Shown here: positions 9,556-12,935 of the stretch, piece by piece
Layout: each line of letters opens with the position of its first letter
Position numbering within the stretch: position 1 is the stretch's first letter
Virus record (IMG/VR): IMGVR_UViG_2579779007_000003
Direction: 5' to 3' (one strand)
DNA length: 12,935 nucleotides
Source of the DNA: a virus
Taxonomy: Duplodnaviria > Heunggongvirae > Uroviricota > Caudoviricetes
Translations under genes and position numbers: made by a program
The notes under the pieces: generated by a model
What the model saw: only the letters and a program-made list of their open reading frames with translations
Database searches by the model: none
Told to the model about the DNA's origin: nothing

Positions 9556-9609
9556 TGGCTGTTTCCGGCCTGCATGGCATGATTTGCGCTTTTAAACGGG
9601 AGATCCAGA

Positions 9610-10203
9610 GTGCTGATTGGCTATATAAGGGTATCAACAAATGACCAGAATACAGACCTGCAACGAAACGCTCTTGTTTGTGCAGGATGTGAACAAATAT
9701 TTGAAGATAAATTAAGCGGGACAAAGACAGACCGACCGGGATTAAAACGCGCTTTAAAGCGCCTTCAAAAAGGTGACACGCTGGTTGTCTGGAAACTGGA
9801 TCGCCTCGGGCGAAGCATGAAACATCTGATTTCTCTCGTCGGGGAACTACGGGAGCGAGGGATTAATTTTCGCAGTCTGACCGACAGCATAGACACATCT
9901 TCTCCAATGGGGCGTTTTTTCTTCCACGTTATGGGTGCTCTGGCTGAAATGGAACGAGAACTAATTATCGAGCGAACGATGGCTGGACTTGCTGCCGCCA
10001 GAAATAAAGGCCGTATTAGTGGGCGACCACCTAAACTAACCAAAGCAGAGTGGGAGCAGGCCGGGCGTTTATTAGCACAAGGAATCCCCCGCAAGCAGGT
10101 CGCATTGATCTACGATGTGGCCCTCTCAACTCTGTATAAAAAACACCCTGCGAAACGAACGCATATAGAAAACGACGATCGAATCAATCAAATCGATCGG
10201 TAA
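9610..10203 (+). CDS. gin: Serine recombinase / DNA invertase, Gin/Hin/Cin/Pin family
   Basis: 197-aa ORF starting at GTG 9610 with GGGAG upstream. The N-terminus MLIGYIRVSTNDQNTDLQ carries the catalytic serine motif, and the C-terminus has a helix-turn-helix region. It lies immediately right of the invertible segment. The recombinational enhancer is known to lie within the 5' part of gin in this family; it was not mapped here. Confidence 0.9.
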   Translation: MLIGYIRVSTNDQNTDLQRNALVCAGCEQIFEDKLSGTKTDRPGLKRALKRLQKGDTLVVWKLDRLGRSMKHLISLVGELRERGINFRSLTDSIDTSSPMGRFFFHVMGALAEMERELIIERTMAGLAAARNKGRISGRPPKLTKAEWEQAGRLLAQGIPRKQVALIYDVALSTLYKKHPAKRTHIENDDRINQIDR

Positions 10204-10211
10204 TACAGATC
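10177..10211. promoter_or_regulatory. Cluster of three GATC (Dam) sites upstream of the com-mom promoter
   Basis: GATC at 10177-10180, 10195-10198 and 10208-10211, all within 35 bp at the 3' end of gin. This matches the known Dam-methylation-dependent control region of the Mu mom operon. Confidence 0.7.
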
Positions 10212-10285
10212 GATTATGCCCTAATAACCACACTTAACCCACGATGTTTTTTAAGATAGTGGCGAATTGATGCAAAGGAGGTGAG
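10212..10285 (+). promoter_or_regulatory. Candidate mom-operon promoter region
   Basis: Contains a TTAT-N6-ATAA dyad (10214-10227), a T6 run (10247-10252) next to -10-like hexamers (TAAGAT or GATAGT, 10252-10260), and AGGAGG (10276-10281) before the com ATG. The exact -35 and -10 elements and the transcription start are not resolved. Confidence 0.45.
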
Positions 10286-10474
10286 ATGAAATCAATTCGC
10301 TGTAAAAACTGCAACAAACTGTTATTTAAGGCGGATTCCTTTGTTCACATTGAAATCAGGTGTCCGCGTTGCAAACGTCACATCATAATGCTGAATGCCT
10401 GCGAGCATCCCACGGAGAAACATTGTGGGAAAAGAGAAGAAATCACGCATTCTGACGAAACCGTGCGTTATTGA
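10286..10474 (+). CDS. com: Com, zinc-finger translational activator of mom
   Basis: 62-aa [38 protein letters not shown] with CxxC-(17)-CxxC zinc-binding spacing and a strong RBS. It is near-identical to Mu Com as I recall it, and is followed by the overlapping mom gene. Confidence 0.9.
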
Positions 10475-11132
10475 GTATGAAGGCCAGATTGTTGGCTATG
10501 GTTCAAAGGAGCTGCGCGTTGAAACCATATCCTGCTGGCTAGCCCGCACAATTATTCAGACAAAGCACTATTCCCGCCGTTTTGTGAATAACTCTTACCT
10601 TCACCTGGGGGTATTCAGCGGACGCGATCTGGTTGGCGTTCTCCAGTGGGGATATGCCCTTAACCCCAACTCAGGTCGTCGTGTCGTGCTTGAAACGGAT
10701 AACCGGGGCTATATGGAGTTGAACCGCATGTGGCTACACGACGACATGCCCCGCAACTCTGAATCACGGGCCATTAGCTACGCGCTGAAAGTTATCAGAT
10801 TACTGTATCCGTCAGTGGAGTGGGTTCAGTCCTTTGCTGACGAACGCTGCGGACGCGCAGGCGTTGTGTATCAGGCGTCGAATTTTGATTTTATTGGCAG
10901 CCATGAAAGCACGTTCTACGAGCTGGATGGTGAGTGGTATCACGAGATAACGATGAACGCGATTAAGCGAGGTGGACAACGAGGCGTGTATTTACGGGCT
11001 AATAAAGAGCGTGCCGTGGTGCACAAATTTAATCAGTATCGCTACATCAGATTCCTGAACAAGCGAGCAAGGAAGCGGCTAAATACCAAGCTATTTAGGG
11101 TTCAGCCGTACCCTAAAAGCACTCCCGATTAG
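10395..11132 (+). CDS. mom: Mom DNA-modification protein (adenine modification, anti-restriction)
   Basis: Longest ORF in this frame (245 aa), overlapping the 3' end of com and ending at TAG 11130-11132. The true start is uncertain: in-frame candidates are ATG 10395 and GTG 10425, and there is no in-frame ATG after the com stop. Assigned from the Gin-Com-Mom order and my recollection of Mu Mom. Confidence 0.8.
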
Positions 11133-11215
11133 TATCAAATAATTTTTCGTTGTGCCGTTTTGGGTGGTATCAAAAAAAATCCAAAACGGTATCAAATGAT
11201 TTTGCGCGCTTTATG
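11133..11215. other. Element terminus / junction region between the Mu-like segment and the lambdoid stf
   Basis: 83 bp between the mom stop and the stf divergence point. It contains three direct copies of GTATCAAA (11132-11139, 11167-11174, 11189-11196) and TTTTTCGTTGTGCCGTTTTG (11143-11162). I could not recognise canonical Mu R1/R2 transposase-binding sites here. Confidence 0.4.
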
Positions 11216-12754
11216 AACTATCCCTTTCTGTGCTGTCGTTGCATCCTGTGCGGTGTATTTCCCGTTAGCCAGGTCATACGCGGCCTTAACTGCTTTTGGC
11301 GTTGCCGCCAGTGACTCGGAAGTGCTGTTAGTCGCACTGCTGAGCTGTACTATCCCCTTTTTCGTCGTGCTCGCATCCTCAAGCGCCACGGCGGATGCAA
11401 TATCCTCTGCCCGTTTTGCCGCTGTCTCAGCGCGCGTTGCTGCGGATTCTGCCGTACTTTTGCTCTGTGCTGCCGCTGCCGCACTGCCAGCTGCCTCTGT
11501 CGCCTTCGTGGATGCTGTCGTGGCGCTGCCCTTCGCTGCTGACGCCTGTCTGGTCGCCTCATCTTTTGAAGCAGACGCCGATGATGCCGATGACGCCGCC
11601 GAACTGGCGGACGATGCGGCAGCCGTTTTTGAGGATTCTGCGTTGGTTTCCGACGCTTTCGCGTTCGTTTCGGATGTCTTCGCTGCGGAAGCAGACCTCG
11701 CTGCTGCGCTGGCCTGTTCAGTGGCTTCGCCAGCCTTCGTTGTGGCTGTTGAAGCGGATGATGCGGCGCTTTCTGCCGATTTTCCGGCGGCGGTGGCACT
11801 GGCTGAGGCCTGCCCGGCACTTGTTGACGCGGCACTGGCCGACGACACAGCCGCTGTTTTTGAGCCTGCTGCTGCGGAGGCACTCTGTGCTGCTGCCGTT
11901 TCAGAGGACTTGGCGTTTGTCTCAGACGTCTTTGCCGCCTTCGCGGAATTTCCTGCCGCCGTTGCCGAGGAAGCTGCACTACTGGCGCTTGATGATGCGT
12001 TCGTTTCTGATGATTTCGCCGCCTCTTTTGAGGCCGCCGCATCCCGGGCTGAGGTGGCAGCTTCTGACGCTTTCGTGGTCGCGGTGGATGCAGAAGTGGC
12101 TGCTGATTGTTGTGACGCTGCGGCATTCGTTTCTGACGTTTTCGCGGCACTGGCACTGGTAGCTGCCGCGCTTTTTGAGGACTCTGCAGCAGCAGCACTT
12201 TTCGATGCTTCACTGGCCTTTGTTGATGCCGTTCCTGCGCTGGAAGACGCTGACTGAGCCGACGACGCGGCCTGTCCGGCTGACGTGCTGGCTGCACGTG
12301 CTGAATCTGCAGCATCAGTCGCACGGGTTGCCGCCTCACTGGCAGATGTGCTGGCATCACTGGCTGACTTCTTTGCGGCTGCCGTGTTCTGTGCCACCAC
12401 GGACGCGTTACGCGCCACCTCTTCCACCATCAGTTCAAAACGACGCAGTGCCTCCGGACGGGCATCATCCTCCGTCATGGCACCGAGAAAATCATTCAGC
12501 GTACCGGGTTGAGAATCTTCATACACGGTGATGGTCCCGGCATGTGACGGCGGGAATCCTTCCACCAACAGAATAACGCTGTACTGACCGTACTCAACGT
12601 CCATGCTGTAACGCCCGGCTTCATCCGGATTTTCTGAGGCCAGCGTGTTCACCACCACAGTGGTACTGTTACGTTTTGCTTTCAGCTGGATTGTGCAGTT
12701 CTGTACCGGTTTTCCTGTGCCGTCTTTCAGTACACCTGAAATCTTTACTGCCAT
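11192..12754 (-). CDS. stf: Lambdoid side tail fibre protein Stf, N-terminal about 520 aa, truncated at the junction
   Basis: Starts at ATG 12752-12754 (MAVKISGVLKDGTGKPVQNCTIQLKA, the lambda Stf N-terminus) with GGGGTG upstream; the six-frame track begins 2 codons earlier at GTG. It has a long Ala/Ser/Thr-rich repeat region and the conserved KGIVQLSSATNSTSESLAATPKAVK motif. After a second QKGIV copy the frame reads HKARKII then stop (TGA at 11192-11194) instead of continuing the motif. Confidence 0.85.
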   Translation of the reverse strand: MAVKISGVLKDGTGKPVQNCTIQLKAKRNSTTVVVNTLASENPDEAGRYSMDVEYGQYSVILLVEGFPPSHAGTITVYEDSQPGTLNDFLGAMTEDDARPEALRRFELMVEEVARNASVVAQNTAAAKKSASDASTSASEAATRATDAADSARAASTSAGQAASSAQSASSSAGTASTKASEASKSAAAAESSKSAAATSASAAKTSETNAAASQQSAATSASTATTKASEAATSARDAAASKEAAKSSETNASSSASSAASSATAAGNSAKAAKTSETNAKSSETAAAQSASAAAGSKTAAVSSASAASTSAGQASASATAAGKSAESAASSASTATTKAGEATEQASAAARSASAAKTSETNAKASETNAESSKTAAASSASSAASSASSASASKDEATRQASAAKGSATTASTKATEAAGSAAAAAQSKSTAESAATRAETAAKRAEDIASAVALEDASTTKKGIVQLSSATNSTSESLAATPKAVKAAYDLANGKYTAQDATTAQKGIVHKARKII

Positions 12755-12765
12755 ATTCACCCCAC

Positions 12766-12792
12766 AAAAAAGCCCGCCTGAACCGGCGGGCT
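12766..12792 (-). terminator. Intrinsic terminator downstream of lom (- strand)
   Basis: On the - strand: stem GCCCGCC, loop GGTTCA, stem GGCGGGC, followed by TTTTTT (plus-strand A-run 12766-12771). It lies between the lom stop and the stf RBS. Confidence 0.6.
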
Positions 12793-12818
12793 GTCATAAC
12801 ACTGTGTTACCTGGCTAA

Positions 12819-12935
12819 TCAGAATTTATAACCGACACCCACGATGAAACCGTCAGTGCGCCAGTCACCACTGCCGGAGCCTTCATAAGCAATATCAATG
12901 GCCACGGATTCGGTCGGGTTAAACTGCACGCCAGC
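12819..12935 (-). CDS. lom: Lom/Ail/PagC-family outer-membrane protein, C-terminal fragment (5' end lies outside the window)
   Basis: The - strand translation ends ...IAYEGSGSGDWRTDGFIVGVGYKF then stop (12819-12821). An aromatic-X-aromatic C-terminus is typical of beta-barrel outer-membrane proteins, and the position upstream of stf is as in lambda. Confidence 0.65.
   Translation of the reverse strand, partial: AGVQFNPTESVAIDIAYEGSGSGDWRTDGFIVGVGYKF

Follow-up and report, generated by a model that had tools for sequence, protein, structure and literature searches.

Judged by its sequence, the cassette is almost certainly a com-mom late operon, carried by a Mu-like (Muvirus) prophage and equipped with the complete control circuit of phage Mu. 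The right-hand part of this prophage makes up about 11.2 kb of the window, the whole stretch of viral DNA analysed here (12,935 nucleotides). In a nucleotide comparison, positions 9600-11116 were 97.3% identical to phage Mu, which bears out the alignment to Mu com-mom proposed in an earlier, sequence-only reading. The com-mom region shows about 96-98% identity to D108, SfMu and Yersinia Mu-like phages, and the 361 bp of 10140-10500 are 100% identical to prophages of E. coli SE11 and TUM9757, Com D20V included. The promoter, the two RBSs, com and the start of mom, as annotated in Mu, map base-for-base onto the window. The Mu com-mom operon (AF083977 / NC_000929, Mu_52, Mu_53, Pmom) has the same gin-com-mom order at its right end, and its -35, spacer length, T6 run, -10, both Shine-Dalgarno (SD) sequences, Com target, translation-inhibition structure (TIS) hairpin and GTG start are identical to those of the window. 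The differences from Mu comprise six base changes in 10177-10480 (10189, 10222, 10235, 10242, 10344 and 10439), D20V and K52E in Com, a Mom that is 4 residues longer (..PYPKSTPD), and a right end of another type, Mu homology stopping at 11116. Judged from sequence, the gene pair with its control region is an ordinary textbook case that is already known; being nearly base-for-base Mu, it represents a correct but ordinary annotation and no discovery. The worth of the window therefore lies in annotation: the right end of a Mu-like prophage is identified, and a toxic DNA-modification gene is found intact with a complete set of safety controls.

Along the window, the genes are arranged as tail and baseplate genes, invertible-segment ORFs, gin, com, mom and the prophage/host junction at 11213/11214, an arrangement that places com-mom downstream of gin and the G segment, where a Mu-like transposable phage has its right end. 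The genes and all promoter and RNA elements described below lie on the plus strand; the Dam/OxyR region, the activator site and the prophage right end are given without strand. The G-segment invertase gene gin (9610-10203) carries Pfam Resolvase and HTH_7 domains and is annotated as gin in Mu and D108. Position 10189 is C (T in Mu), by which the Mu gin stop is lost and a D108-like Gin of 197 aa results. Both D108 and vB_YpM_Tongde have a longer Gin and a longer Mom, as in the window, whereas D108 carries an extra gene 56 after mom. The prophage right end (11133-11213) bounds the cassette and lies outside it. It is common to the Yersinia phages Tongde, vB_YpM_5 and vB_YpM_6, whose match to the window runs to 11213/11214 (in Tongde the right end is shared up to 11213), and host homologues without interruption align from 11214 on.

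These surroundings bear on whether the cassette could be an intact but silent relic in a defective prophage, for example one without C or functional ends, in which the circuit never operates. The window reaches neither the C gene nor the left end, the right end is unlike that of Mu and terminates in TA, not CA, and the element is inserted within the tail-fibre gene of another prophage. However, every ORF of the Mu-like part is open and 95-98% identical to ORFs of complete prophages, com and mom are without frameshifts, and the same right end is present in Yersinia phages isolated as virions. SE11 also carries an identical cassette, in a Mu-like prophage that is complete and encodes transposase A/B and two activators of the Mor/C family. 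This prophage is unlike that of the window in its insertion site and in the 3' end of mom. A silent relic is considered unlikely, and the reading as a com-mom operon with the full Mu circuit is preferred.

The predicted Dam/OxyR control region (10165-10211) is identical to Mu except at 10189. It consists of ATAG (10165-10168) followed by three GATC sites at 10177-10180, 10195-10198 and 10208-10211, or about -87, -69 and -56 from the probable transcription start; the three sites within 35 bp described in the sequence-only reading are thus present, upstream of the C site and at the same places as in Mu. Two CGATCG (PvuI) sites stand 18 bp apart, in accordance with the 18-bp PvuI fragment that Pmom yields (PMC3378877). 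The first two GATC sites are overlapped by the 3' end of gin, and since two of the three fall within the last gin codons, the cluster might be a by-product of gin coding or of chance, and no Dam/OxyR operator. The statistics by themselves make the cluster modestly improbable only: with the 19 GATC sites of the window placed at random, three within 35 bp occurred in 1.6% of trials, and a plain base-composition shuffle produced such a cluster in 19% of trials, the latter figure being high because the shuffle restores the depleted GATC count. Nor was GATC or GANTC enrichment found upstream of com in non-enterobacterial loci. The window as a whole, however, is 2.6-fold depleted in GATC (19 sites versus about 50 expected from base composition), and the weight of the cluster comes from its identity with Mu and its conservation in other loci. 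The Dam/OxyR role of the same sites in Mu is experimental (PMC3378877 and references therein). All three GATC are retained in every Mu-type relative, and three GATC upstream of com recur in divergent Enterobacterales loci (L052, L054, L055, L066, L086) whose surrounding sequence differs, as it also does in L045 and L047; the divergent Symbiopectobacterium locus L054 even retains the 18/13 spacing. An accidental cluster is accordingly extremely unlikely, and a Dam/OxyR operator is the reading retained here. In E. coli agn43 (flu), three GATC lie within the OxyR binding site and their methylation blocks the repressor. The logic of that Dam/OxyR switch is shared with the upstream layer of Pmom, but agn43 is a host gene with heritable phase variation, and it has no activator C and no Com/TIS layer.

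Next to the GATC cluster, a binding site for the late activator C is predicted at 10213-10228 from its match to Mu. It is a 16-bp imperfect dyad, ATTATGCCCTAATAAC, with its centre between 10220 and 10221, equivalent to -43.5; the C site of Mu is likewise a 16-bp dyad centred at -43.5 and overlapping the -35 (PMC2582627). The sole difference from Mu is T for C at 10222, in the non-symmetric centre, where D108 differs from both Mu and the window (GTCTC), and both half-sites are identical to those of Mu. This change, like Com D20V and K52E, recurs in other prophages. The proposed Pmom consists of exact matches at the right spacing: the -35 hexamer ACCACA (10227-10232), a 19-bp spacer with a T6 run (10247-10252), and the abutting -10 hexamer TAAGAT (10252-10257). 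ACCACA with 19-bp spacing (PMC2582627) and the T stretch (PMC3378877, PMC4461284) have been described for Pmom. The T6 run had been reported beside a candidate -10, and its final T is indeed the first base of TAAGAT, a hexamer that occurs once in the window; the run is invariant among Mu-type relatives. With positions relative to +1 taken from the distances in PMC2582627, transcription would start at about 10264, where two published distances agree (dyad centre at -43.5, -10 hexamer at -12 to -7). The 'late promoter' feature of the Mu record maps to 10211-10277. A sigma-70 consensus scan of 10100-11300 gave no match and hence no independent support for Pmom, as expected for an activator-dependent promoter.

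A second E. coli com-mom class (STEC346 L005; IMG/VR L020, L027 and others) provides a further comparison. As in the window, com overlaps mom, the start is GUG, the operator and TIS stems are identical, and two CGATCG lie 18 bp apart with TATAG before them. In contrast, com is only about 79% identical, and this class has neither the third GATC nor a C-box dyad, T6 run or TAAGAT. Another promoter or activator is therefore presumably used.

The first gene of the operon, com (10286-10474), encodes a 62-aa zinc-ribbon translational activator. The strong ribosome-binding site reported for it is the SD sequence AGGAGG (10276-10281), 4 nt before ATG 10286, onto which the Mu RBS annotation maps at 10276-10280. 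Com was recognized by Pfam PF10122 (31.4 bits, cutoff 22.9) and by 60/62 residues identical to Mu Com. The N-terminal cysteines of the zinc ribbon (Cys6, Cys9, Cys26, Cys29) are present. A PDB sequence search with Com returned nothing below E 0.4.

By homology, mom (10425-11132) encodes a GNAT-fold DNA adenine modification enzyme of 235 aa with a GTG start. Its frame begins inside com, as had been claimed: it opens directly after TGA 10392-10394, contains ATG 10395 and GTG 10425, and stops at 11130-11132. Disruption of this frame had been named as a reason to doubt the cassette, and the frame is intact. Mom is identical to Mu Mom at 230/231 residues, matches PF25680 in full length (1-202 of 202, 253 bits), and aligns with PDB 8BV8 (232 aa) at E 6e-158. 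All invariant residues of the family are present, with H48, Y49, R101, S114, D139 and Y149 in invariant columns. The further claim that no in-frame ATG follows the com stop is literally incorrect, as ATGs are found at 10713, 10728, 10746 and 10953. All four encode internal Met residues, 239 nt or more beyond the com stop, and starts there would cost at least 96 N-terminal residues including the invariant H48/Y49, so the practical point stands.

The sequence-only reading rightly listed GTG 10425 among the candidate mom starts but left the choice undecided, whereas homology can fix it. The predicted start is settled at GTG 10425, 50 nt before the com stop and 7 nt downstream of GGAG, since four lines agree: the Mu GenBank annotation, in which the mom CDS start maps to 10425; the hairpin model, which places the GUG in the TIS stem (PMC6483171); 8BV8, whose residue 2 aligns to Mom residue 1; and the called N-termini of Mom homologues, which cluster at this codon. 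The longest ORF, of 245 aa, would instead be translated from ATG 10395, which is in frame straight after the frame-opening TGA. D108, RefSeq records and the PGAP annotation of many E. coli prophages take this codon as the start, and 47 of 48 close relatives have ATG or GTG there, the exception (L049) being a misaligned row. On the other hand, the 17 nt upstream hold no SD-like sequence (score 0), and the AUG is itself taken up by the Com operator stem (AUGC/GCAU), as its 5' arm. None of the sequences that distant loci show at the homologous position (ACGC, GCGC, AGGC) is a start codon, and homologue N-termini do not reach 10 residues upstream. The curated Mu annotation, the TIS model (PMC6483171) and the crystallised 232-aa Mom all use GTG. 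Loss of 10 N-terminal residues is moreover tolerated (PMC13219725), which indicates that extra residues are unnecessary for activity. Translation from ATG 10395 was rejected as very unlikely, and the start is fixed at GTG 10425 where many automated annotations take ATG 10395.

The mRNA around this start contains two hairpins. The 25-nt Com target, GAAUGCCUGCGAGCAUCCCACGGAG (10393-10417), is an exact match to the sequence in PMC6483171, and its operator hairpin has stems 10395-10398 and 10405-10408 with the loop CUGCGA. This hairpin lies directly 5' of the TIS and has the loop motif CC-N(2-3)-GAG; binding by the Com of the window is predicted. The second hairpin, the TIS (10408-10430), is based on folding, conservation and the model of PMC6483171. 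In its stem, UCCCACGG (10408-10415) pairs with UUGUGGGA (10423-10430). The mom start, within the 3' end of com, would thus be sequestered with its SD: the GUG is inside the 3' arm with P(paired) = 1.0, and GGAG (10414-10417) runs from the last bases of the 5' arm into the first bases of the loop. The hairpin is drawn in both the minimum-energy and centroid folds, and the stem-loop that the sequence-only reading proposed to seek by RNA folding, and whose absence it would have held against the cassette, is therefore present and conserved. Compared with shuffles, fold stability gave z = -1.2 and -1.6, so that thermodynamics alone is not significant and the structural case depends on conservation and published work. 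In the RNAfold minimum-energy fold, U10408 belongs to the TIS stem, and for this reason the 4-bp operator hairpin of the literature is not drawn. Across 11 sequence types of close relatives, all 11 TIS pairs hold, with stems that are invariant or show wobble-only changes and substitutions that fall in loops. No compensatory changes were found among these relatives because the stems are invariant, and distant loci were therefore needed. The hairpin region is doubly coding, and double coding by itself constrains sequence.

The multilayer control of Mu mom that the sequence-only reading described can be followed along the window, where the Dam/OxyR sites, the C-dependent weak promoter and the Com-dependent, overlapping mom all map to identical or near-identical Mu elements studied experimentally (PMC3378877, PMC2582627, PMC6483171). 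From this near-identity we infer how the prophage may be controlled. Transcription would begin near 10264 from a deliberately poor promoter, at which RNA polymerase would need the phage late activator C, bound as a dimer at 10213-10228. Just upstream, OxyR would repress by binding over the three GATC sites (10177-10211) unless it is kept away by their Dam methylation, and Fis may add further repression. The transcript would give Com first, via its strong SD. Translation of mom from GUG 10425, 50 nt within com, would be blocked because the GUG and part of the GGAG SD are paired in the 10408-10430 hairpin, until Com binds the small hairpin directly 5' of it (10395-10408, loop CUGCGA) and the start site is opened. 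Mom would then turn adenines of the phage DNA into N6-carbamoylmethyl-adenine, using glycyl-tRNA(Gly), and this modification would shield the phage DNA against the restriction enzymes of the host. Host dam and oxyR, the left end of the prophage and the C gene, which is expected upstream, lie beyond the window limits.

Comparison with 80 distant Mom loci separates the widely conserved layers from the local ones. Compensatory changes accompany the operator hairpin where it recurs among these loci, and their mom start codons are preferentially base-paired, whereas the three-GATC cluster is limited to Enterobacterales. GANTC (CcrM) clusters were considered as a replacement for GATC in Alphaproteobacteria and rejected, with 0.29 vs 0.37 per 150 nt and no enrichment. 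The mom start codon has a mean P(paired) of 0.79 over 43 com-mom loci of several bacterial orders, compared to 0.52 for the com start and 0.59 for shuffled flanks (p about 1e-4). Of these loci, 40 contain the operator hairpin motif, whose expected frequency is about 0.13 per 120 nt. A covariation count on loci selected by pairing is circular because the pattern demands pairing; the test used instead was anchored solely on the core GCC-N(2-4)-GAGC, with pairing not demanded, and the two outer pairs were complementary in 41/49 cases versus 14% expected. No Rfam family covers the operator/TIS element, and the sole match, to IS102 RNA, was sub-threshold (22.7 bits vs 46, E 0.41) and was discarded as chance. 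The conserved RNA element appears, on comparative evidence, to span com-mom systems of Enterobacterales, Desulfovibrionales, Rhodospirillales, Rhizobiales and Pseudomonas. It is somewhat probable that the operator and start-sequestering hairpins form a conserved cis-regulatory RNA to which the Dam/OxyR and C/T-run layers are Enterobacterales- or Mu-specific add-ons. The comparison accordingly suggests that Com and the hairpins are ancestral, and that the Dam/OxyR sites, C box and T run are lineage-specific. Covariation at the sequence level also backs the 1991 two-hairpin model of Com action, which gives the result a modest wider value. The operator motif sits within com in either of two reading frames, and in 15 of the 43 loci the operator hairpin is duplicated 21-25 nt upstream.

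The com-mom system has been under study since the 1980s, and the cassette in the window, as a further copy of it, is an example of an already known system. By BLAST of 9600-11400 against phage genomes, the identity to phage Mu is 97.3% over 9600-11116, and D108, SfMu, PhiR68_1 and a group of Yersinia Mu-like phages show 96-98%. Mu-like prophages of many E. coli genomes match the entire window, with tape measure, DNA circularization, baseplate and tail fibre genes followed by invertase, Com and Mom. Three genes lie at the right end: gin (9610-10203; Pfam Resolvase and HTH_7), com (10286-10474; PF10122) and mom (stop 11130-11132; full-length match to PF25680). The prophage ends at 11213 and a lambdoid 'prophage tail fibre N-terminal' gene (PF08400; minus strand, beside a lom-like gene) lies from 11214; the cassette is therefore situated in the final 1 kb of a Muvirus prophage. 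The annotation as a complete com-mom cassette was correct, and the ORFs, including the mom frame for which a disruption had been considered, are intact.

The insertion site is the tail-fibre gene of a lambdoid prophage (11192-12935, minus strand). Other E. coli genomes have the gene uninterrupted, and these copies begin to align at 11214. The interrupted ORF runs into the Mu end, with its stop at 11192. Homology to Mu ends at 11116, within the 3' end of mom. The 81 bp past mom (11133-11213) differ from the 115-bp attR of Mu and from the right end of D108, where the extra gene 56 is present, and are shared with Yersinia phages vB_YpM_Tongde, vB_YpM_5 and vB_YpM_6. They finish ...GCGCGCTTTA, so the terminal dinucleotide is TA, compared to CA in Mu, and three TTTGATAC(C/T) repeats occur on the minus strand. 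In E. coli SE11 an identical cassette belongs to a Mu-like prophage that is complete and has two Mor/C-family genes; this makes a functional context for the window cassette plausible. The C gene of the prophage represented here is located outside the window.

In the accepted Mu circuit, transcription from Pmom is controlled by Dam and OxyR with additional repression by Fis, dependence on C arises from poor -35/-10 spacing and a T stretch, and translation requires Com (PMC3378877). The corresponding elements can be seen in the window. The T6 run (10247-10252) stands beside the -10 as described previously, leading into the only TAAGAT of the window (10252-10257), and ACCACA (10227-10232) lies exactly 19 bp upstream of TAAGAT, as in the Pmom -35 and spacer of Jiang and Howe (PMC2582627). 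The same authors placed the C target, a 16-bp imperfect dyad, at -43.5; in the window, ATTATGCCCTAATAAC (10213-10228) has its centre at 10220.5. Both published distances concur on a +1 at 10264, a position inferred from that paper rather than measured. The Mu late promoter feature of the curated record AF083977, which annotates the late promoter, two RBSs, com and a mom start at 35907, maps to 10211-10277 (window = locus + 9299). A sigma-70 consensus scan found no promoter in the Pmom region, as expected for an activator-dependent promoter. The three GATC sites within 35 bp were also confirmed, starting at 10177, 10195 and 10208, or about -87, -69 and -56 from the inferred +1; sites 1 and 2 of this mom operator fall in the final codons of gin. 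With 19 GATC in the window against about 50 expected from composition, three within 35 bp occurred in 1.6% of random placements and in 19% of plain shuffles with the GATC count restored, so that the cluster by itself is only mildly improbable. The 18 bp between the CGATCG sites (10176 and 10194) agree with the 18-bp PvuI fragment of Pmom (Karambelkar et al., PMC3378877).

The com SD AGGAGG (10276-10281; RBS 10276-10280 mapped from AF083977) is located 4 nt ahead of ATG 10286, bearing out the strong RBS proposed for com. A four-codon mini-ORF (ATG CAA AGG AGG TGA, 10270-10284) overlaps it, is the same in Mu and is probably meaningless. Compared to Mu, C for T at 10189 removes the gin stop codon and adds 4 codons, giving a Gin of 197 aa as in D108 (stop region 10201-10203). 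T for C at 10222 lies in the C-box centre, also divergent in D108, and the spacer changes at 10235 and 10242 are common to Tongde. T for A at 10344 (GAT to GTT; Com D20V) abolishes a GATC within com that Mu, D108 and Tongde have; the allele also occurs in E. coli SE11, TUM9757 and the IMG/VR locus L035. G for A at 10439 changes Com K52E and is silent in mom. Mom is identical to Mu Mom at 230/231 residues, with a tail (..PYPKSTPD) 4 residues longer.

A second E. coli class (L005 2340-2730 from E. coli STEC346, L006, the IMG/VR loci L020, L021 and L027, and others) has a Mom that is 95-97% identical and a com of only about 79% identity. D20V falls between the zinc knuckles, in a stretch that is strongly divergent in this class, and the change is thus probably neutral. 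The class retains TATAG and two CGATCG 18 bp apart, thus two of three GATC, but has neither the third GATC nor a C box, T run or TAAGAT; its operator and TIS (translation-inhibition structure) stems are the same as in the window. It is likewise found at a prophage end, the prophage having integrated into a host gene. A plasmid copy, L006, is a pseudogene in which GUG has become GUA.

TGA 10392-10394 marks the upstream limit of the mom frame, which offers ATG 10395 and GTG 10425. The earlier statement that no in-frame ATG follows the com stop is literally wrong, as ATGs exist at 10713, 10728, 10746 and 10953; these are internal Met codons far downstream. The start itself, previously held not to be fixable from sequence alone, can now be assigned to GTG 10425 on four concurring lines of comparison. 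The Mu annotation places it there (AF083977, which also gives a mom RBS, GGAG, at 10414-10417); the published hairpin model uses a GUG start (PMC6483171); the alignment with the crystal structure of Mom, 8BV8 (232 aa; E 6e-158), pairs its residue 2 with the first residue of the protein read from the GTG; and among 20 aligned homologues (52-93% identity) called N-termini lie at or within a few residues of it (MGK.., MAQK.., MYKN..), with the 10 extra residues of an ATG-10395 start found in 0/20. The annotation of ATG 10395 as the start in D108 and in many PGAP records seems to reflect a preference for the longest ORF. This ATG is without an SD, makes up the 5' side of the Com operator stem, and corresponds in distant loci to ACGC, GCGC or AGGC, none of them a start codon.

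The TIS hairpin UCCCACGG/UUGUGGGA (10408-10415 with 10423-10430), holding GUG within its 3' arm, was both the minimum-energy and the centroid structure in folds of 10380-10480 and 10390-10435, although z-scores against shuffles were weak (-1.2 and -1.6). The published 4-bp operator hairpin (AUGC 10395-98 with GCAU 10405-08) is absent from the RNAfold output; U10408 is able to join either helix. At 10393-10417 the window carries an exact copy of the 25-nt Com target given in PMC6483171. Across 48 close relatives (44 IMG/VR loci, Mu, D108, Tongde and the window), 11 usable sequence types were obtained for this stretch, a misaligned twelfth row (L049) being left out, and all 11 pairs are intact in all 11 types. 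Stem changes are only A-U to G-U and C-G to U-G, with remaining substitutions confined to the two loops. This pattern, in a doubly coding stretch and with no compensatory changes, is consistent with the hairpin model.

Since the cassette is nearly identical to that of Mu, the same circuit may be assigned to the window strain, for which identity, intact ORFs and structure conservation were established directly. Without methylation of the three GATC sites OxyR would repress, and Dam would lift this repression; C would bring RNA polymerase to the out-of-phase promoter. Com would be translated first and, bound to the operator hairpin, would release GUG and its SD from the inhibition hairpin. Mom would then make N6-carbamoylmethyl-adenine with glycyl-tRNA(Gly) (PMC13219725; earlier work PMC7261163).

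A profile search of a genome collection with Mom homologues gave 80 distant loci (45-83% aa identity). In 43 of them there is a Com-like CxxC...CxxC ORF whose end falls in the mom start or shortly after it. In about 37, including Yersinia, Serratia and Sphingomonas (L061-L065, L113, L114, L118-L121, L125, L127, L130 and others), this pattern detected none upstream of mom; com could be missing there or have diverged too far, or mom could be under different control. The three GATC sites, dyad half-sites, T6 run and TAAGAT are kept in all Mu-type relatives, and L045 and L047 have three GATC although their upstream sequence is otherwise unrelated. Among the distant loci, three GATC in the 150 nt upstream of com are confined to Enterobacterales (L052, L054, L055, L066, L086; 18/13 spacing retained in L054), and those of Desulfovibrio, Alphaproteobacteria and Pseudomonas are not enriched in GATC or GANTC there. 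The Dam/OxyR layer therefore appears to be lineage-specific, added onto a Com/hairpin core of greater age.

Of the 43 loci, 40 carry a hairpin of 4-bp stem and C-N(2-4)-GA loop no more than 110 nt upstream of the mom start, against a background of 0.13 per 120 nt. As this search presupposes pairing, it was repeated with only the core GCC-N(2-4)-GAGC as anchor. The two outer positions were complementary in 41/49 distinct cases, compared to 14% expected (binomial p ~1e-27), with more than 10 different pair combinations (second pair CG:11, GC:7, UA:7, GU:2, AU:1). The first hairpin base occupies com codon position 2 in loci of the Mu type and codon position 3 in another 21, which indicates that the constraint acts on RNA, not peptide. 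Mean pairing probability of the best SD-preceded in-frame mom start was 0.79, compared to 0.52 for the com start and 0.59 with shuffled flanks (Wilcoxon p 9e-5 and 2e-5), and is 1.0 in the window. Conserved hairpins are thus present in close and distant loci, where their absence at every candidate start had been considered. Rfam has no family for the operator/TIS element, and the RNA comparison adds modestly to what is known. Mu-type loci have a single operator hairpin. A second like hairpin (e.g. GGGC-CNNGA-GCCC) occurs 21-25 nt upstream of it, 60-90 nt upstream of mom, in 15/43 distant com-mom loci (L076, L080, L081, L083, L087, L090, L093, L100, L105, L108, L109, L112, L117, L124, L126), and this duplication suggests two Com sites.
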